DNA from: an uncultured bacterium
Lineage (GTDB): Bacteria; Acidobacteriota; HRBIN11; JAKEFK01
DNA length: 64,000 nt
Assembly: GCA_963777505.1 (NCBI GenBank)
Contig: CAVZQN010000001.1
Coordinates: 675,792-739,791, forward strand
Direction of reading: 5' to 3'
A program made the position numbers and the translations under genes. This document shows positions 41,278 to 56,854 of the stretch, in pieces. Under the pieces are notes generated by a model, which made no database searches, was not told the DNA's origin, and saw only the letters and a program-made list of their open reading frames with translations. Every line of letters starts with the position of its first letter. Position 1 is the stretch's first letter.

Positions 41278-41306
41278 GGCAAATTATGAAAGGGATTTAG
41301 AAATTA

Positions 41307-41350
41307 AAACCAGGGTTGCCGGGGTTTCAATGCCAGCAAAACCCTGGTTT
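41307..41350 (-). terminator. Hairpin, possible terminator for the minus-strand small gene
   Basis: AAACCAGGGTT...AACCCTGGTTT. Confidence 0.5.
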
Positions 41351-41409
41351 AGAAGATGCTTTAAAGCACAAACTCAATTGATAAGAACTGATTTATATAT
41401 TGCCTGAAG

Positions 41410-41586
41410 TTACACCCTCGCGAAATGACTTTCAACGTCTTTATCAATTAATCTCAGGATGTCTTCAACGCTCATTGCCGTTGCTTCTGAAGCATTGATT
41501 ACATTTTCCATGAGCTTGCACACTTCCTCATCATTAAGAAAGTTCAGTATGAAGAAATTGTCTCTTAACCACATCAGGTCGAGCAT
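41410..41586 (-). CDS. 58-aa acidic small protein, absent from the ORF track
   Basis: GGAGGT 5 nt before ATG; MLDLMWLRDNFFILNFLNDEEVCKLMENVINASEATAMSVEDILRLIDKDVESHFARV. Confidence 0.6.
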   Translation of the reverse strand: MLDLMWLRDNFFILNFLNDEEVCKLMENVINASEATAMSVEDILRLIDKDVESHFARV

Positions 41587-41706
41587 TCTGCACCTCCAGT
41601 GTGTGCTGATTCAATTATTTTCCTGGATAAAATCTGGATTAGAGCAGAATTTGCAGAAGATTTGTCATATGGATTGTTACAAGTAAGAACCCTATACTTT
41701 TGAGGA

Positions 41707-43440
41707 CTAAAACGTATAGCGGAGTTCGTAATAGATGCGATCACTTTGATCGAATCTGCCAAAAACACCTAGTGGATCACCGCTCAGGAAATCAGCACCA
41801 CCTGTCAGGCGCCAATTCTCATGAAAGTACCAGTTCAATTTAAGGCGGACCATAGAATCATTCCGGGTCAAGCTATAAATTACGAGTCCTTCCGGTTCCA
41901 GGCTTTCGTGAAAGGCTCTTGTCGATGCATAAAATGAAACTCCCGTTTCAAATTCCCGCAAAAACATATCTGGGTCATGGGATGGAAACCAGCGCTGAAA
42001 AAATTGGAAGTTGATCTTCGATTCTTCAGGAAGCGGGCGTTCCAAACTTAGAACGTAATCGAGAAAGTTTTTTTGAACTACACCATCTGCATCGCTTAAC
42101 AGATCGAGATTAAACCAGCGATCCATTGTATAAACTCCTTCCCCCTTAAATATGAAGGAGCCAAAATCCTTTGAAGTTGTCATGCCGAATTGTTGAATCC
42201 GATCATGATCCGGTTGATAGACAAATACAGGATCGGTCCCGCTTTGAATGGACCTTGAGAAAAAAGGTGTAGCATCAATGCTTCCATAATAAAACCCAGA
42301 AACGTCCCAACCGCCTTTTAAAATTGAGAGCCGGGCACCATACGCAGAATTTTCAAATGAATTGTCAGGTTGACGTTCATTAAGAATTACTGTGCCGAAC
42401 TCGGGCGGAGCCGGTGGAGGGAATGGATAAAATTCGCTACCAGGCACGCCGATTTCGTCATATGTCATATACGGAATAAGAATAAATTCGGCATGAAAGT
42501 CATCTTTAAAATATTCAGCACGAACAGCCCATTGTGGAATGCGAATTAAGTCAAAATCAAGTAACACGAATTCGCGCAAATCTTTTGCAGAAACTACATC
42601 CGCGAAAAATAAACCGATGACTTCACCCCAGATAATATGTTGACGGCCAAACCTGAAATCGAGATCACCAGCAGAAATATCAAGATAAGTTTCGTGAAAC
42701 AATGCTTCAAATTCTTGATCATCACGAACTGTTTCAGGATAGAAATCGTTTAATGCAAAAATTGCATCATAATAAGCGCGTCCTGAAATTTTGTACTTCA
42801 CGTTTTCACTGATGTCGCCTTCGATTCCAAGTTCAACTCGATTCTTAAACTTCGATCCATGCTCCGGATCAGCGATCGTATATGCCGCTTCATTTTGTAA
42901 AAAACCGGCGACTCGAAATCCTGATCCGCTTTGCATGTCTTCAAGCATGACTGGCGCTGGTTCTTCTTCAGGCATTGCTAAAGGAGGCGGCTCCGGTTCA
43001 GCGGGCACAGGGTCAGCAGGTACGGCCTCGGCGGCTGGTGGCTCAGCAGTTTGGGTTGGAGGTTCTGCGGGCTGCGGGGGTTCGGGTTTTTTAACTTCAG
43101 GCGCAGGTGGTGTCTCAACTTTTTTGCTTTCAACCTGAGGTGTTGATGGCGGAAAATATTGCCGAACGAAACCTTTAATTCCAATATGGCGCAATTGAAT
43201 CATCGCTTTTTCGGCTTCTTTCTTAGTGATATACGGACCCGCCATTACAACTTGAAGCTCAGTGTGTTCTTTCGTTACAAAACGTTCGAGTACAGTCGTA
43301 TATCCGGCAGTCTTTAGACGTTCGACAGCCGCATCAATGTTGGCTTGTTCTGCGTAGGCTCCGATTTGAACTGCGAAATCGGCGCTGCAAATGGAACTGA
43401 TGATCAATAAGACTGCACTTACAAGCAGCGCTAGTCTCAT
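41707..43440 (-). CDS. SPOR domain, Pro-rich linker and predicted outer-membrane beta-barrel (DUF1302-like)
   Basis: Signal peptide; FAVQIGAY...VMAGPY..KKEA SPOR motif; FGRQHIIWG; C-terminal ELRYTF. Confidence 0.82.
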   Translation of the reverse strand: MRLALLVSAVLLIISSICSADFAVQIGAYAEQANIDAAVERLKTAGYTTVLERFVTKEHTELQVVMAGPYITKKEAEKAMIQLRHIGIKGFVRQYFPPSTPQVESKKVETPPAPEVKKPEPPQPAEPPTQTAEPPAAEAVPADPVPAEPEPPPLAMPEEEPAPVMLEDMQSGSGFRVAGFLQNEAAYTIADPEHGSKFKNRVELGIEGDISENVKYKISGRAYYDAIFALNDFYPETVRDDQEFEALFHETYLDISAGDLDFRFGRQHIIWGEVIGLFFADVVSAKDLREFVLLDFDLIRIPQWAVRAEYFKDDFHAEFILIPYMTYDEIGVPGSEFYPFPPPAPPEFGTVILNERQPDNSFENSAYGARLSILKGGWDVSGFYYGSIDATPFFSRSIQSGTDPVFVYQPDHDRIQQFGMTTSKDFGSFIFKGEGVYTMDRWFNLDLLSDADGVVQKNFLDYVLSLERPLPEESKINFQFFQRWFPSHDPDMFLREFETGVSFYASTRAFHESLEPEGLVIYSLTRNDSMVRLKLNWYFHENWRLTGGADFLSGDPLGVFGRFDQSDRIYYELRYTF

Positions 43441-44230
43441 GAATTTATGACTTCGCCATCATTCATTCGAACCACTCGATCAGCTAGTTCCATAACCCTG
43501 GGATCATGAGTTGAAAAAACAAAGGTCGTTTTCTCTGAACGATTAATTTCTTTCATCAATTGAAGAATGCTTTCCCCCGTTTTGTGATCTAAATTCGCCG
43601 TTGGTTCATCAGCAAGAATAATTTTGGGACGAACAGCAAGTGCACGTGCTATCGCGACTCTCTGCCGTTGTCCGCCACTCAACTCATTCGGTTTGTGATG
43701 TGCAACACTGGATAGACCGACAACAGCTAAACAATGATTCACACGTTCTTTCCTTTCGAATTTGCTGATTTCATCAATTTGCAAAAGTGGATATTCAACA
43801 TTTTCAGCAGCCGACAACACGGGGAGCAGATTGAAAGTCTGAAAAATAAATCCAATTGTACGCGCCCTTAGATCCGCAAGTTCATCGGATGAAAGACCGT
43901 TTACAACGCGGTCTTCAATCGTAATTGTGCCTCCGCTGGGTGTATCAATGCATCCGATCAAATTCAAAAGCGTTGTCTTTCCGCTTCCTGAAGGACCGGC
44001 AATTGCAAGAAATTCTCCGCTCTTCACACCCATTGTCACATTCTTCAATGCCTGGACCTGATGATTTCCAAGTGTGTATCGCTTGGAGACTCGATCAATC
44101 GAAACGAGCTTTTCAACCGCTGCGGCAGCAATTTCAGGAAAACTTAGAAGCTTCGTATGGAATGTCAGAAGAAAATAATGGATCAAGAAAAGATCTGATA
44201 GTGCAGCATTCTGATTTGCGGAAAGAGTCA
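43437..44230 (-). CDS. LolD/MacB-type ABC ATPase domain, probably the C-terminus of the upstream GTPase-like ORF
   Basis: GPSGSGKTT, FQTFNLL, LSGGQRQR, ADEPTANLD, STHD; no convincing start codon or RBS near the domain start. Confidence 0.88.
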
Positions 44231-45810
44231 AGAATTGCTTTTTGATAAAGTGATTGTTGACTGATTGGAATTCCAAGATCTGAAAGCCATTTTGAAGCAT
44301 CATCAGCATTCATTGTGGCAACGCCGCGTTTCTGGGCCAATCGCTCAAGCAAGTACGAATAGACTTGTTCGGAAATATTTTTGACGCTGTTGAAATCCTT
44401 ATTGCTGATCGCCGTTTCGAGATATGAAAACAAAACTTGAACCCGAATATCTCCAGCAAATATTGCTGAAGTTGCGGGAGGCAAATCAGTGACAGGTTGT
44501 ATTTGGGGCGATGTCACATCAAGTAATGACTGAGTGACAGGTTGTGTTTGGGGCGATGTCACATCAAGTAATGACTGAGTGACAGGTTGCACAGTTACAG
44601 GATCAGGAACTGAAGAAGTGGCTGGTTCCTCTTGTATTTCCGGGAAGGTAGGCATTGGTTCTGCAGATGTCTCAAGATCGGGAACCGCAGGTGTTGCCGG
44701 TTCGCGATCAGGTTCTGCATCAGCAAATACAATCGTTTCTGATTCTTCTATTTCATGGGGAATGACCTGTTCTTCAACGTCTGCAAAGACCTCTTCCTCG
44801 TCTAAGTCTGTAAACACCGGTTCAGGTGACGGCTCGATCATGACCGCAGATTGCACTGCTTCACCTGGTTGAGCCTCAAGCTCCTGAGTGGTTTCATGCT
44901 CAGATTCTGGTTCGGCCTTGGGAGCGATCTTGTCTGCTAGTTGAAGAAGCTCTTCAAATTCAAACTTCTGTTCAAAAGGAAAGGCGGCTATTGGAGAGTT
45001 GCCATAGTCTATTTCTATTTCGTCCGGGTCGGAAGAACCATATTCGATTTCAAGCTCCTCAAATTCATGACCCTTGCTTTCTTCGGTTTCTTCAACCTGA
45101 GTTTCATTTGCTTGCTGCAACAATGTCAGTGCTGAATTTTCATCTGAACTTCCAATGACTGAAATTCCAGGCTCATTCATTGATAACGCTGCATTTTTTG
45201 AAATCGAACGCGCAGCCCCGATCAAAATTCCCTTATTATTCAAATCATTCCAAACAAGAGCGGTAATACAGTCTAAAGTCTCAAGAACGCCTGAACCAGA
45301 AGTGGCGCAAGTTTCAAAAAATTGCACGTTATAGGAATTCAGAAATAAATTCATTTTCCCAACAGGCAGAATATTGGGAAGATCCATTTTGTTGTATTGG
45401 ATAATCATTGGAAATTCTTTCAGAGTTCTGCCGCAAGCACGAAGATCTTCTTCCAGATTTTGATAGCACTTAAAGTTTGCAAACTGACACGAGGGTTGCA
45501 TGTCCGCAAGAAATACGCAGCCATCAGCGCCGTTGACCAGCGCATGTCTCAGCAGGTTATTTGTTACCTGGCCGGAAACAGTGCTGAGTTGAATTACAAA
45601 ATCATAGTTGGAGGAACTGAAATGATCAGGATGGTATTCAAAACTGATTTTGGATCCTTGTTCTGTCGCGAGGGATACTAATTTTCCCCGATTCTTCTCC
45701 GGAACATGATCATAAATATAAAGAAGCGAAGTATTCTTTCCTGCCTGTTCGGGACCATAATAGATGATCCGGGCGGTGACTTTTTTGTCTGCTCGATTAA
45801 TAAACGCCAT
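44134..45810 (-). CDS. MglA-like small GTPase domain with long acidic linker and helical domain
   Basis: MAFIN, IIYYGP..AGK.T, GKLVSLATE, TVSGQ, GADGCVF.AD, QYNKMDL, CATSG.GV. Confidence 0.85.
   Translation of the reverse strand: MAFINRADKKVTARIIYYGPEQAGKNTSLLYIYDHVPEKNRGKLVSLATEQGSKISFEYHPDHFSSSNYDFVIQLSTVSGQVTNNLLRHALVNGADGCVFLADMQPSCQFANFKCYQNLEEDLRACGRTLKEFPMIIQYNKMDLPNILPVGKMNLFLNSYNVQFFETCATSGSGVLETLDCITALVWNDLNNKGILIGAARSISKNAALSMNEPGISVIGSSDENSALTLLQQANETQVEETEESKGHEFEELEIEYGSSDPDEIEIDYGNSPIAAFPFEQKFEFEELLQLADKIAPKAEPESEHETTQELEAQPGEAVQSAVMIEPSPEPVFTDLDEEEVFADVEEQVIPHEIEESETIVFADAEPDREPATPAVPDLETSAEPMPTFPEIQEEPATSSVPDPVTVQPVTQSLLDVTSPQTQPVTQSLLDVTSPQIQPVTDLPPATSAIFAGDIRVQVLFSYLETAISNKDFNSVKNISEQVYSYLLERLAQKRGVATMNADDASKWLSDLGIPISQQSLYQKAILDSFRKSECCTIRSFLDPLFSSDIPYEASKFS
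44488..44589. repeat. 45-bp tandem repeat, ~2.3 copies (QPVTQSLLDVTSPQT)
   Basis: AGTGACAGGTTGT.TTTGGGGCGATGTCACATCAAGTAATGACTG repeated in frame. Confidence 0.9.
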
Positions 45811-45819
45811 GACACCTTA

Positions 45820-45871
45820 TGCAGGCAAGATGCCTGCGGCCCGTAATGCGGACAAAGATGTCCGCGCTCCG
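45820..45871. repeat. Family B REP-like element, partial copy
   Basis: TGCAGGCAAGATGCCTGCGGCCCG.AATGCGGACAA...CCGCGCTCCG matches 34725-34774. Confidence 0.85.
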
Positions 45872-46064
45872 ATATTTGATGGATTGTTGGGAAAATTCGG
45901 AGGTAGTAAATAATTCATTCTTTAGTCTCATGCCTTAATAACTGTCCCCCCACTGCAAGAGTCCAAAGAAAAAACCGTTTCGTAGTTGAATTAGTGTACC
46001 ACAGCTTTTATCATTCCTTTTCAGATTACAATAGACGTTCTAACTCCGGCTAATTGAACTAATT

Positions 46065-46820
46065 ATGAGCAATGAAACTGTCGAAATGGCTCTCATCCAA
46101 AGCCTAAAAGGTGTGTTCAGAGATACCAATGAACAGGAGCAGTACACTCGGGATGGCTGGCGAAGAATACAGGTAGTCCTTGATTTACTCGCAGATCTGA
46201 AGAAAGAAGGCGTCAAGAGTGTTCTGGAGCTGGGCTCCAATCCGTATTTGCTGACGAGTCTAATGAAGCACCGCTTTGATTTCGATCTTCATCTCGCGAA
46301 CTTTTTTGGTGATGATGTGAACGGCATTCATCAAACACATACTGCAGAACTGGATGGAAATCCAATTGAGTTTCAGTATTCACACTTTAACATTGAGCGT
46401 GATCCTTTCCCTTATGAAAATGAAAGTTTCGACTGCGTGATCTTTTGTGAAATTCTGGAGCACCTTTTGCTTGACCCGGATCATGCAGTTGCAGAAATGG
46501 CCAGGATTCTTAAGCCAAATGGATTTCTAGTCATCTCAACACCCAATGCCACACGATTAACAAATCTTTACTTCATTGCGCTTGGGAAGAATATTTATGA
46601 TTGGTATTCTGCGAATGGCGTATATGGACGTCACAATCGCGAATATACGCACAGCGAAGTTGTTGACCTGATGAATCGCCACGGCTTCAACATATTCCGA
46701 TCACATGTTCAAAATATTCAACCGCTGGCAAGAAGATTTACTTATCTACAAAAGCTGCGTCCAGAAGTCTGGTACGAACATCTTTTTATTATTGGGAAAA
46801 AGACTCAGGCAGGAACTTGA
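46065..46820 (+). CDS. Class I SAM-dependent methyltransferase
   Basis: VLELGS, FDCVIFCEILEHL, LKPNG, STPN, HNREYT. Confidence 0.9.
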   Translation: MSNETVEMALIQSLKGVFRDTNEQEQYTRDGWRRIQVVLDLLADLKKEGVKSVLELGSNPYLLTSLMKHRFDFDLHLANFFGDDVNGIHQTHTAELDGNPIEFQYSHFNIERDPFPYENESFDCVIFCEILEHLLLDPDHAVAEMARILKPNGFLVISTPNATRLTNLYFIALGKNIYDWYSANGVYGRHNREYTHSEVVDLMNRHGFNIFRSHVQNIQPLARRFTYLQKLRPEVWYEHLFIIGKKTQAGT

Positions 46821-47392
46821 GCTTTCTTTCGTATGTGAATTCGTGTGGCTTTTGGACTGTTCTTCCTGATCTGCTGTACATGATGCGCTCTCGCTTTCAT
46901 GTTTTGTACAGCACGTTCGAAAGCTATTTCAAATTGTTCGGCAGGTACTGCAATTTTTAAATCCCGCATGAATTCAAGCTGCTTCATTTCGCTTTGAGCT
47001 CTATGAAGTCCTTCTCTCACTTCTACGTTGATTGTTGGTAAATCAACTGCAACCTGAACGAAATCAGCTTTGTTCATAACCGCAACCGCTACTGGACTAA
47101 TGACGGCTTTCTCTGGTTGCATTTCATTGCACTCAGGTTCCTCAGCGAAAGTCATGTTAGTCACAGTCGATTCAACCACCGGAATGCTCTCAATCTTTTG
47201 GGCTATTGTGGATGGAGTCTCGACGTGCGGATTCAAAACCAATTTGAAAAAGCTGATTCCGTAAGATAGGCTGTTTTGCATATCCTGCGGAATATACTTT
47301 TGGGCCATACAAATCGGAAGGGTGAGCAAAACACAAACTGGAACAAACGTAGGAATTACTCCTGAAGCTATAAATGCAATTATTTTTCTCAT
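46805..47392 (-). CDS. Hypothetical protein with N-terminal hydrophobic segment
   Basis: 195-aa ORF with AAGGTG RBS. Confidence 0.65.
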   Translation of the reverse strand: MRKIIAFIASGVIPTFVPVCVLLTLPICMAQKYIPQDMQNSLSYGISFFKLVLNPHVETPSTIAQKIESIPVVESTVTNMTFAEEPECNEMQPEKAVISPVAVAVMNKADFVQVAVDLPTINVEVREGLHRAQSEMKQLEFMRDLKIAVPAEQFEIAFERAVQNMKARAHHVQQIRKNSPKATRIHIRKKAQVPA

Positions 47393-54429: not shown

Positions 54430-56299
54430 TTAACGATCCACTTCACCCAAAACGATATCAATGCTTCCTAGAATTGCCATTACATCAGCCACAAGGTGGC
54501 CGCGGCACATATGTTCTAAAGGTGTAAGGTTCACGAAACTTGTTGCGCGAACATGATACCGGTATGGATGTGCTTCACCATCACTGACTACGTAATATCC
54601 AAGTTCGCCTTTCGGATTTTCAACACGCCCATAAGCTTCACCGGCAGGAACACGAATTTGCCAACCTTTTTTGCCCTGGAAAATATCGCCTTCGGGAAGT
54701 TGTTCAAGCGCTTGTTTCAAAATCTTTACCGATTCCCGCATTTCATCGATACGAACCATATAACGATCATAAATATCACCGTTTGGATACGTTACGATGT
54801 TGAAATCAAACCTGTCATAAATTGAATAAGGATCTGCTTTCCTGACATCGTACGGAACGCCGCCGGCGCGAAGAACAGGACCTGATGCGCTGAAAGCAAT
54901 TGCATCAGCTCCCTTTAAGACTCCGACTCCTCTGCAGCGATTTAAAAGAATTTCGTTGTTCGTTAAATAGCTATCGATTTCATCGATTGCACGAGGCATG
55001 CGTTCGTATACAAGTTTTCTTGCAAGCGGAAGAAATTCTTCCGGCAGATCTTCGGCAACTCCACCAAATCGGAAGTAGTTGCACATCATCCGTGAACCGG
55101 ATGCCATTTCAAATAAATCCAAAATTAATTCCCGTTCCTCAATCGCGTAGAGTGCTGGTGTAAAGAATGCACCTAAATCATTTAACAAAAATCCAGCAGC
55201 CCAAAAATGATTCAGTACTCGCGTTAATTCCGCCATGATCACGCGAATATATTCGGCGCGTTCCGGCGGTTTGATGCCCATCAGTTTTTCGACAGCTAAC
55301 GAATAACCGAAATTATTTCCCATTGAACAGATGTAATCGAGCCGGTCGGTAAACGGCATGTTCATCAAATACGTATTCCGTTCACCGATTTTTTCGTGGT
55401 TCCTGTGCATATAACCCATGACTGGATCGAGCGCTTTAATCCGCTCGCCCTGTATCAGGAGTTTCATTCGGAACACACCATGGGTGCTTGGATGCTGTGG
55501 ACCAACATTTATAAGAAGAAGATCAGGCTCAAGTTGTTCAGTTGATACTGCGCTTGCAGGGACTCCGATATCATCACCCGATGGTGTCCAGTCATCGGGA
55601 TTCCATCCTTTCGGATACATGACATTGCGATGGAATGGAACACGTTCTTCTGCACGTTTGTGATACCCTTCGCGCCATCGAGTCGAAAAAATTTTCCCAG
55701 GTTCTTCGTAATATGGCTCAAGCCAGTCTTTACGAAGCGGAAATCCTTCAAAATCGTCCCATAACAAAATCCGTTTTAAGTTCGGATGTCCTTCGAAGTT
55801 GATCCCCATCATGTCAAAGACTTCTCGCTCCTGGAAATTTGCTCCAGGGTAGAGCGGCGTTAGGGATGGCACCTTCGGATTTTCTTTATCAGCACGGATC
55901 TTGACACCTAATACTGGTCCGCCTTTTTTCGTGGAAACAAGATGGTAAACAACCTCATAGCTATCTTCGTAATCGACGGAAGTGAGATTCGTGAGGTAAT
56001 CATATGAAAGCGTATCTCGTAAATGCTTGAATACATCCAGTGCATGCTTCGTATCTATTACGAGATTTTCTTTTTGAGCCTGAACAGCGTTCTCTAATCT
56101 CAAACTCTCATTTAAAGAACGCGCAAGATCTTGAGCGGATGTCGGAGTTTCTTTTACTTCAGTATCGATTGGAAATGCGGCGATCCGTTTCGGCATTTCC
56201 TTTATTTCACGCTGATACTTTTCCGGATTCTTGCAGGCATCACGAATTTCATCAAGCTGACGCGGGTCAACGAGATCAGGACCAAGAAGCGGAACAGCG
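54430..56299 (-). CDS. nuoCD: NADH-quinone oxidoreductase subunits C/D, probably fused to NuoB
   Basis: [45 protein letters not shown]. Confidence 0.95.
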
Positions 56300-56854
56300 C
56301 ATCGCGGCAGGAGCCTCTTTGTCATACCATCGAACTTTGCTGATTGATTCACCATCAATCTTTTTTTGCAGCGTAATTAAGCCATCTAATAAAGCTTGAG
56401 GAGTAGGAGGACAACCTGGAATGTAAACATCAACAGGCAGAAATTCATCGATACCACTGACAACGTTGTAACCTTCTTTAAATGGTCCACCGCCTGTAGC
56501 GCAAGCTCCCATTGAAATTACATATTTCGGTTCAGGCATTTGGTTATACAAACGCACGATCATTGGAACCATACGTTTTACAACTGTGCCGGAAACAATC
56601 ATCAGATCAGCCTGGCGCGGAGATGCGCGAAAAAGTTCGGCACCAAATCGAGCAATATCAAAACGGGATGCTGCAGTGGCAATCATTTCGATCGCACAAC
56701 AAGCCAAACCGAATTGAAGCGGCCATATAGAAGAGCGACGTCCCCAGTTCACAACTTTGTCCAGAATACCAACCAGACCAGGCCAGGTTGTGACTGCTAT
56801 ATGACGACGGACTTCTTGTTCAAGAACCTGTTCTTCGGATAATTGTTCGGCCAT
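56276..56854 (-). CDS. nuoB: NADH-quinone oxidoreductase subunit B
   Basis: [32 protein letters not shown]. Confidence 0.96.

Follow-up and report, generated by a model that had tools for sequence, protein, structure and literature searches.

We analysed a 64,000-nucleotide window from the genome of an uncultured acidobacterium (Acidobacteriota; HRBIN11; JAKEFK01; GenBank assembly GCA_963777505.1, contig CAVZQN010000001.1, positions 675,792 to 739,791 of the forward strand), and found on its minus strand, at 43437..45810, a gene in which an MglA-like G domain, an acidic linker, a helical domain and an ABC nucleotide-binding domain are joined in one reading of 790 codons when an extra base near 44232 is ignored. 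Comparison with homologous sequences makes it very likely that the fusion is real for the family to which this gene belongs. The best explanation of the whole, which we consider probable, is that the gene supplies the ATPase of an accessory, Lol-like route of envelope export of the type VII ABC kind, and that the break in its reading frame is a consensus error.

As sequenced, the gene consists of two open reading frames (ORFs) on the minus strand, a GTPase-side ORF of 558 amino acids (aa) at 45810..44134 and an ABC-side frame that is open from 44309 to 43437. These frames overlap by 176 nucleotides (nt) and are both open across 44232, where the removal of one base yields 2373 nt, corresponding to 790 codons and a stop. 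The exact base is ambiguous within minus-strand AATTCTTGAC, and its placement draws on a contig from sequencing run X2, on the reading in homologues and on a split profile match. In P0002, the closest homologue (774 aa, 87% identical), ...SLYQKAILTLSTNHNAALSDLFLIHYF... runs through the junction in a single frame, with the same residues that the original prediction, made from the letters of the window, had derived by deleting one base near 44230. A profile of the helical domain matched the window at profile positions 6–93 in the GTPase frame (domain E 6e-37) and at positions 81–129 in the ABC frame (6e-15), so the break sits inside a conserved domain. The X2 contig (10,231 b, ~93% identical) spans 43400–45876 and shows just one single-base indel relative to the window, lacking a base at 44232. 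In the sister genome of the same genus (G001, locus L013), the helical and ABC parts are in one frame; the fused gene of G001 is broken elsewhere, at the end of the G domain (L013 ~10530), where both the window and L037, a metagenome contig of the G001 clade, are intact. In L037, the whole fused ORF is intact.

The ABC domain begins at residue ~69 of the ABC-side frame (LVSIDRVSKRY), and the sole ATG, GTG or TTG between 44232 and the domain is a TTG at 44186. No Shine-Dalgarno-like purine run was seen by eye upstream of this TTG or of the ATGs at 44300–44309, which agrees with the earlier claim that the ATPase has no good start of its own when unfused. The stop of the ABC frame overlaps the start of a SPOR-barrel gene as ATGA (43437–43440), bearing out the proposed coupling of the two genes. 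A promoter and terminator scan of 41300–46200 was uninformative, promoter-like sites being rarer there than in shuffled sequence.

To place the gene in a family, we searched the 558-aa ORF against 5.8 billion protein clusters and obtained 34 matches, 14 of which are 705–805 aa long and combine Ras/Arf with ABC_tran domains. Each of the 14 homologues with coverage of the helical domain is a single uninterrupted ORF, and with these 14 and the intact L037, the prediction of one gene that runs from an MglA-like domain through an acidic linker and a helical domain to a LolD-like ATPase is strongly supported. One partial homologue carries the source label Acidobacteriota. We also scored a whole-family profile against 1.84 billion representatives clustered at 50% identity and obtained 635,901 matches, of which the best 150 were examined. 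Only P0010 (1433 bits) has the whole architecture among these; the next match, at 397 bits, is ABC only, P0039 is a 191-aa G-domain fragment, and the G or helical domain is absent from the other 148, leaving no fusion of independent origin among the 150 best matches. Within those same matches, the family amounts to a single 50%-identity cluster among the 1.84 billion representatives. Among species-representative genomes, it was found only in the present genome and in its sister G001; this tally of relatives, like that of the barrel search below, includes an unpublished genome (G035), on which no specific claim rests. At the MglA-like loci L003–L012 in relatives, no ABC domain occurs within 1.5 kb. 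A metagenome scan had matched residues 1–772 at locus L053, which was rejected as a fusion: the ABC and MglA-like genes are separate there. At this locus (L053 9874–12882), the ABC ATPase and the MglA-like protein are encoded on one strand together with a 349-aa protein; the ABC domain is only 28% identical to that of the window, and the neighbourhood may be unrelated.

The original prediction knew of no described system of this kind, and our search of open-access full text likewise found no description of an MglA-type GTPase fused to an ABC ATPase. The sole open-access paper pairing 'MglA' with LolD, MacB, FtsE or LolCDE is a Salmonella study. In the excerpted text of a 2015 survey of prokaryotic small GTPases, ABC matches are discarded as noise and no fusion is mentioned (PMC4316618).

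The C-terminal ABC nucleotide-binding domain (43437..44105, minus strand) is a type VII ABC ATPase of the MacB/LolD/FtsE group, and its catalytic motifs are all intact. Walker A (GPSGSGKT), the Q-loop, LSGGQ, Walker B (IILADEP, with the catalytic Glu) and the H-loop (THD) are all five present, and ABC_tran is matched with 117 bits. Scores against narrower models are 228.9 bits for LolD (TIGR02211, cut-off 307.75), which does not reach equivalog level, and 227.9 bits for DevA (cut-off 295.8). A fold comparison of the P0002 model with solved structures, covering residues 549–774, matched 5xu1_A with Z 34.0 and a root-mean-square deviation (rmsd) of 1.0 over 218 residues, followed by MJ0796 (Z 33.8) and the ABC domain of MacB (Z 33.7), with YtrE, YbbA, FtsE and LolD all at Z >31.

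The same model, calculated for P0002 with AlphaFold2 from a 93-row alignment, delineates the remaining parts of the protein. Its confidence, expressed as the predicted local distance difference test (pLDDT), is ~97 in the ABC domain, 85–93 in the helices of residues 429–550, ~60 in the G domain and <40 in residues 196–431; with a 14-row alignment alone, the mean pLDDT was 38.5. The helix bundle 429–550 leads straight into the first ABC strand. In the window, the conserved helical domain of ~120 residues, which contains the frame break, directly precedes the ABC domain (44106..44490, minus strand). Searched against Pfam at E up to 1, it matched no family (the best, HNOB, at 0.046 is below its cut-off), and there was no usable match in Atlas. 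Between the helical and G domains lies an acidic, proline-rich linker of ~245 residues (44491..45225, minus strand), variable in length among homologues and predicted to be disordered. A 45-nt tandem repeat within it (44488..44589, 2.3 copies, 98% matches) duplicates a 15-residue unit, QPVTQSLLDVTSPQx, of which P0002 carries one copy, and in this repeat-bearing linker the X2 contig has 73 other bases in place of 115 window bases (44542–44658). A complex prediction of the G domain (1–195) against the helical and ABC parts (425–774), run with 14-row alignments and without controls, gave a score of 0.31 against a mark of 0.32.

Residues 1–195 (45226..45810, minus strand) constitute the MglA-like G domain. 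Four MglA sequences match residues 1–193 with E 3e-36 to 3e-35, the best being M. xanthus MglA (6h17/5ymx, 3e-36), and the next family, Arf1, follows at E 2.4e-5; the Pfam Ras match is weak, its 21.6 bits falling exactly at the cut-off. The motifs read GPEQAGKN in the P-loop, TEQGSK in switch I and TVSGQ in G3, with NKMD and ETCA kept. This GTPase had been described as degenerate, with a P-loop GPEQAGKNT and without the catalytic Arg of MglA, and both features were recovered. GK-N is found in the window and in all 14 homologues, compared to GKTT in MglA, and the pattern GxxxxGK[S/T] is absent from the fused G domain. At the positions of MglA D52-R53-T54, the fused family has G, then S, N, D or E, then K, the window carrying S53 for R53; the Arg finger is missing and the switch-I Thr is replaced by Lys in 15/15 sequences. 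In G3, SG is invariant, and the position of the catalytic Gln is occupied by Q in the window and eight of 14 homologues, and by N (three), L (two) or E (one) in the others. N26, K54 and the NKxD and ExxA motifs (N140, K141, D143, E166, A169) are invariant in the window and 14/14 homologues. Asn at that P-loop position is a nucleotide-affinity-lowering or GDP-biasing substitution in Ras (S17N) and in MglA (T26/27N).

Between L013 and L037, the ratio of non-synonymous to synonymous substitution rates (dN/dS) rises from 0.023 in the ABC domain through 0.054 in the helical domain and 0.087 in the G domain to 0.18 in the linker; the values are rough because dS, at 1.2–1.5, is near saturation. Since dN/dS is low, the degeneration of the G domain is not read as decay, and the substitution pattern places the domain under purifying selection. 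The present genome holds three extended MglA paralogues with acidic tails, the closest of them 44% identical; these paralogues and the canonical MglA of the genome keep GKTT, DRT and PGQ, and the degeneration is therefore confined to the copy that is fused to the ABC domain. A Roadblock/MglB gene adjoins the canonical mglA (195 aa) on contig C4, and beside the fused gene there is no mglB within the window, as had been noted. The closest paralogue (G000:C3:438111-439616; L036 5112–6617) is a 502-aa protein with canonical MglA motifs and an acidic proline-rich linker, and its C-terminal helical region ends LLYIHHFLCDLYLSL, which recalls the LFLIHYFLLTF of the fused family. When the helical-domain profile was searched against the present genome, this paralogue included, there was no significant match outside the fused gene.

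The gene that overlaps the end of the fused gene (41707..43440, minus strand) encodes a 577-aa protein with a signal peptide, a SPOR domain, a proline-rich linker and a DUF1302-like outer-membrane barrel. SPOR (PF05036) scores 52.3 bits against a gathering threshold of 21 (residues 20–94, profile 3–76 of 76), and DUF1302 (PF06980) scores 47 bits against 23.2 (residues 202–492, profile 87–429 of 541). The order of fused gene then SPOR barrel recurs in L013 and L037, where it continues with a 365–377-aa membrane protein, two permeases in succession and a LolA_like protein. In L013, the genes from the barrel to the second permease share the strand of the fused gene, and the permeases, of 405 and 404 aa, each have MacB_PCD and FtsX domains; the LolA_like gene (PF17131) of L013 is on the opposite strand from the fused gene and is followed by genes for an AMP-binding enzyme and a methyltransferase. 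In the present genome, synteny with L013 stops after the barrel, and the orthologous permeases (85% and 77%) and LolA_like protein (81%) are encoded together at C4:286816-290277. The earlier observation that no permease adjoins the fused gene thus stands for the window; the cognate permease is not missing, however, since an FtsX/MacB_PCD pair belongs to the operons of L013 and L037 and its orthologues lie on C4. PF17131 and the barrel are each matched once in the present genome, and none of the 16 ORFs examined in the neighbourhood of the C4 permease pair contains ABC_tran.

Both permeases score best against lolCE (TIGR02212), reaching 105.1 and 94.8 bits of the 362.45 needed, and a bona fide lolCE gene (385.1 bits) is present at C4:1617003; the low scores and the genuine lolCE elsewhere therefore indicate an accessory Lol-like system. 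Beyond the genus, four of the 39 other relatives searched have a barrel homologue, all four without SPOR, and at three of these four loci the barrel lies within an MMPL – LolA_like/DUF1329 – DUF1302 triad. SPOR on the barrel and a GTPase on the ATPase co-occur in 3/3 loci of the clade, and neither is found in the 4/4 outside homologues. We regard the assignment to a Lol-like / LolA-like / DUF1302 export route as quite likely.

Two further proteins were noted around these genes. The 365–377-aa protein between the barrel and the permeases (L013 13959–15089, L037 13874–14971) is a polytopic membrane protein without a Pfam family, and its 377-aa form resembles GT39/PMT_2 (GT-C) glycosyltransferases according to language-model features (0.97–0.99), a resemblance that serves as a lead only. 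Directly upstream of the fused gene in 3/3 loci is a gene for a 195-aa protein (window 46805–47392, minus strand; L013 9167–9760; L037 9184–9774) that carries a hydrophobic segment at its N-terminus and belongs to no Pfam or NCBIfam family. In the window, a methyltransferase gene on the plus strand (46065–46820) lies between this gene and the fused gene.

Taken as an export pathway, these components suggest the following mechanism. Two copies of the fused protein would power a heterodimer of the two LolC/E-like FtsX/MacB_PCD permeases, which would pull a hydrophobic cargo, with lipid, glycolipid and lipoprotein as candidates, from the inner membrane. The LolA-like periplasmic carrier would take this cargo to the DUF1302-like outer-membrane barrel, which bears a peptidoglycan-binding SPOR domain. 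On the cytoplasmic side, a predicted disordered acidic tether of ~240 residues would link the G domain to the family-specific helical domain and the ABC domain, and the G domain may act as a non-cycling or slowly cycling binding module that tethers or gates the transporter through protein contacts or nucleotide state.

This view of the G domain was adopted because the Mg2+ and hydrolysis residues are lost, the guanine-recognition motifs are kept and purifying selection is seen. A non-cycling regulatory or tethering role is possible at this stage, falling somewhat short of an even chance; the domain may bind guanine nucleotide, or a partner protein only, without MglA/MglB-style cycling, and it is probably not an MglB-driven switch. 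Alternatively, it could work as a GTP switch in the manner of MglA and position the exporter at a pole or septum. The MglA descent of the domain, its conserved NKxD and ExxA motifs, the canonical mglB-mglA pair elsewhere in the genome, which could supply polarity cues, and the SPOR domain (peptidoglycan-binding per Pfam) on the barrel of the same system at 3/3 loci would all suit such a switch, but the P-loop Thr to Asn and switch-I Thr to Lys replacements and the lack of an Arg finger, each in 15/15 sequences, the loss of the catalytic Gln in six of 14 homologues, the affinity-lowering nature of the P-loop Asn, a classic substitution, and the absence of an mglB adjoining the fused gene make it rather unlikely. 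The available portion of a study of M. xanthus describes MglA-GTP as polar, which also favours a switch; it describes MglA Q82A as GTP-locked (PMC3441718). In a more specific proposal, the G domain in the ABC motor and the SPOR domain in the barrel would together make a trans-envelope lipid or lipoprotein export route that is assembled or turned on only at the septum or new pole. Closure of the ATPase dimer would then be gated by the degenerate G domain, with guanine-nucleotide state or polarity proteins as its input. We consider this improbable on present evidence, spatial regulation being suggested by the circumstantial co-occurrence of the SPOR and GTPase add-ons; if true, it would amount to a GTP- or polarity-gated ABC transporter, and no such coupling was found described for any ABC system.

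The status of the extra base was weighed separately, and we think it likely that it is an error of the assembly consensus, because frame errors are frequent in this genome and its sister. Within the window, nuoB (56854..56279) and nuoCD (56358..54433) overlap in different frames owing to one extra base near 56300, and NuoBCD is in one frame in L013 and L037 (807 aa in L037), making this junction a probable second consensus frameshift. In G001, nuoA is broken (L013 ~3750), and it is intact in the window and L037. Comparison of 146 G001 frames from 182 kb (~46,000 aligned residues) with the present genome revealed eight candidate frame breaks, among them a 936-aa and a 627-aa protein cut mid-length, and the reverse comparison (116 queries, ~38,000 residues) revealed nine in G001. 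This corresponds to roughly one break per 15–20 kb in both assemblies, a rate that is approximate because some rows are gene boundaries that look broken through fusion in the other genome, and that in our judgement lies far above expectation for true pseudogenes in free-living bacteria. Directly downstream of the closest MglA paralogue, we came by chance upon a tetrapyrrole-methylase-type gene split into two overlapping ORFs (L036 4296–5142; G000:C3:437295-438141; profile positions 2–83 and 110–211), which is likely a further frameshift of the present assembly. Searches for the rpoB and rpoC families in the present genome, as a test of assembly quality, gave no match. Split genes in this genome and its sister therefore need reads before they are interpreted biologically.

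Several points weigh against the error and against the export reading as a whole. None of the runs X1, X2, X5 and X6 gave a contig of the window's own strain that crosses 44232; X1 and X5 do contain short contigs with 100% identity, but these lie elsewhere, and the eight runs that the search returned all have small word shares (0.05–0.09) and none is RNA. Because no own-strain reads or contigs cover 44232, a true mutation in the window's strain retains part of the probability. Nor does the extra base look like a mere miscount of a homopolymer, as a different base stands inside the would-be run of four, and the eight and nine candidate breaks include a nuoA/nuoH row that is a gene boundary. The operon is dispersed in the present genome, with the permeases on another contig, which would also suit a decaying system; the 377-aa gene was not found in this genome (tblastn at 1e-8), and the near-saturated dS blurs the selection estimates. 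Near the C4 permease pair, there is also an 891-aa duplicated MacB_PCD/FtsX permease (L016 13841–16992; G000:C4:291840-294991) with a PadR regulator and no ATPase listed beside it. Because such orphan FtsX-type permeases occur elsewhere, it is synteny in relatives, and not exclusion, that pairs the fused ATPase with these two permeases.

Were the frameshift true, the locus might encode two polypeptides as the product of a recent gene fission that may still work. One would be a GTPase-linker protein of 558 aa whose helical domain is truncated, the other an ABC ATPase with an odd N-terminus, started at the ATGs 44300–44309 or at TTG 44186. This agrees with the stop at 44134 as sequenced, the 176-nt overlap, the start codons available in the ABC frame, the lack of same-strain reads that would contradict it and the fact that the base is not a plain homopolymer error. 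We nevertheless consider it unlikely: the break falls inside a domain with dN/dS 0.054, 14/14 homologues and L037 are fused, many other genes of the assembly are broken mid-gene, NuoBCD included, and no ribosome-binding-like sequence was seen by eye ahead of the candidate starts. A true pseudogene in a system that decays after dispersal of its operon is less probable again. The permeases and LolA-like gene on another contig, the missing 377-aa gene and the frameshift in the ATPase gene would fit such decay, but 2.4 kb of gene carry one lesion only, the catalytic ABC motifs are all intact, intact ORFs encode the barrel, the two permeases and the LolA-like protein, with 57–85% identity to the sister species, and the assembly-wide rate of frame breaks points to consensus error. 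Finally, one programmed +1 ribosomal frameshift at ATT CTT GAC would join the frames and restore the family reading. This we hold to be extremely improbable, since the junction is in a single frame in every homologue, a ~93% identical contig does without the base, the sister genome is broken elsewhere, at the end of the G domain, and, when compared with a prfB-type frameshift site, the A site holds neither a stop nor a rare codon, and a conserved stimulator is lacking. A consensus error in a gene for one fused protein remains the preferred reading.

The fused protein and its partners resemble several known systems in part. With MglA of M. xanthus and Thermus thermophilus (6h17, 5ymx, 3t12), it shares similarity over the full G domain (E 3e-36), NKxD and a G3 motif with Thr/Ser for Asp ahead of xxG, but it differs in being covalently joined to an ABC ATPase, in having no mglB beside it, and in its P-loop Asn, switch-I Lys, missing Arg finger and variable catalytic Gln. 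SofG is another extended MglA paralogue. Like LolCDE/LolA, the system has a LolD-type ATPase, which matches the LolD of 9rlc with Z 32.0 and an rmsd of 1.6 over 225 residues, a pair of LolC/E-like permeases that are separate proteins of ~405 aa, and a LolA-fold periplasmic protein in the cluster; unlike it, the scores lie far below equivalog cut-offs, the genuine lolCE is elsewhere in the genome, there is a DUF1302 barrel instead of LolB, and the ATPase has a 550-residue N-terminal extension. The DUF1302/DUF1329/RND-MMPL modules of Pseudomonas and other bacteria likewise combine a DUF1302-like barrel with a LolA_like protein, and same-phylum relatives have the triad, but the engine here is a type VII ABC transporter, with SPOR on the barrel and a G domain on the ATPase. 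In the accessible part of a preprint on Pseudomonas, mutant fitness connects the DUF1302/DUF1329 genes with an RND pump, and it is proposed that an envelope component is exported, the function being left unsettled (10.1101/2020.07.04.188060). FtsEX and MacAB-TolC have the same nucleotide-binding fold (FtsE 6z63, Z 32.1; MacB, Z 33.7) and the same permease family. Unlike in FtsEX, the present permeases reach 28.8 bits of the 255 of the FtsX equivalog cut-off; unlike in MacAB-TolC, no MacA-type adaptor or TolC was seen in the present loci; and in both of these systems localisation is achieved via partner proteins, not a fused G domain. As far as the available extracts of two papers go, FtsEX offers an earlier example of the division site being linked to a type VII ABC system (PMC11627006, PMC7468199).

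Seen against these systems, the Lol-like type VII ABC pathway is the known part and the N-terminal G-domain module the new one, because the fusion is rare and no description of it was found. Bacterial Ras-like small GTPases are known as free-standing polarity switches, and ABC ATPases are regulated by C-terminal ligand-binding domains or partner proteins. A conserved covalent GTPase-ABC fusion that is kept by purifying selection would be a natural experiment in which cell polarity or guanine-nucleotide state is coupled to envelope export. In addition, the little-understood DUF1302 / LolA-like envelope module is now tied to a Lol-type ABC engine, which offers a handle on the cargo of that module.

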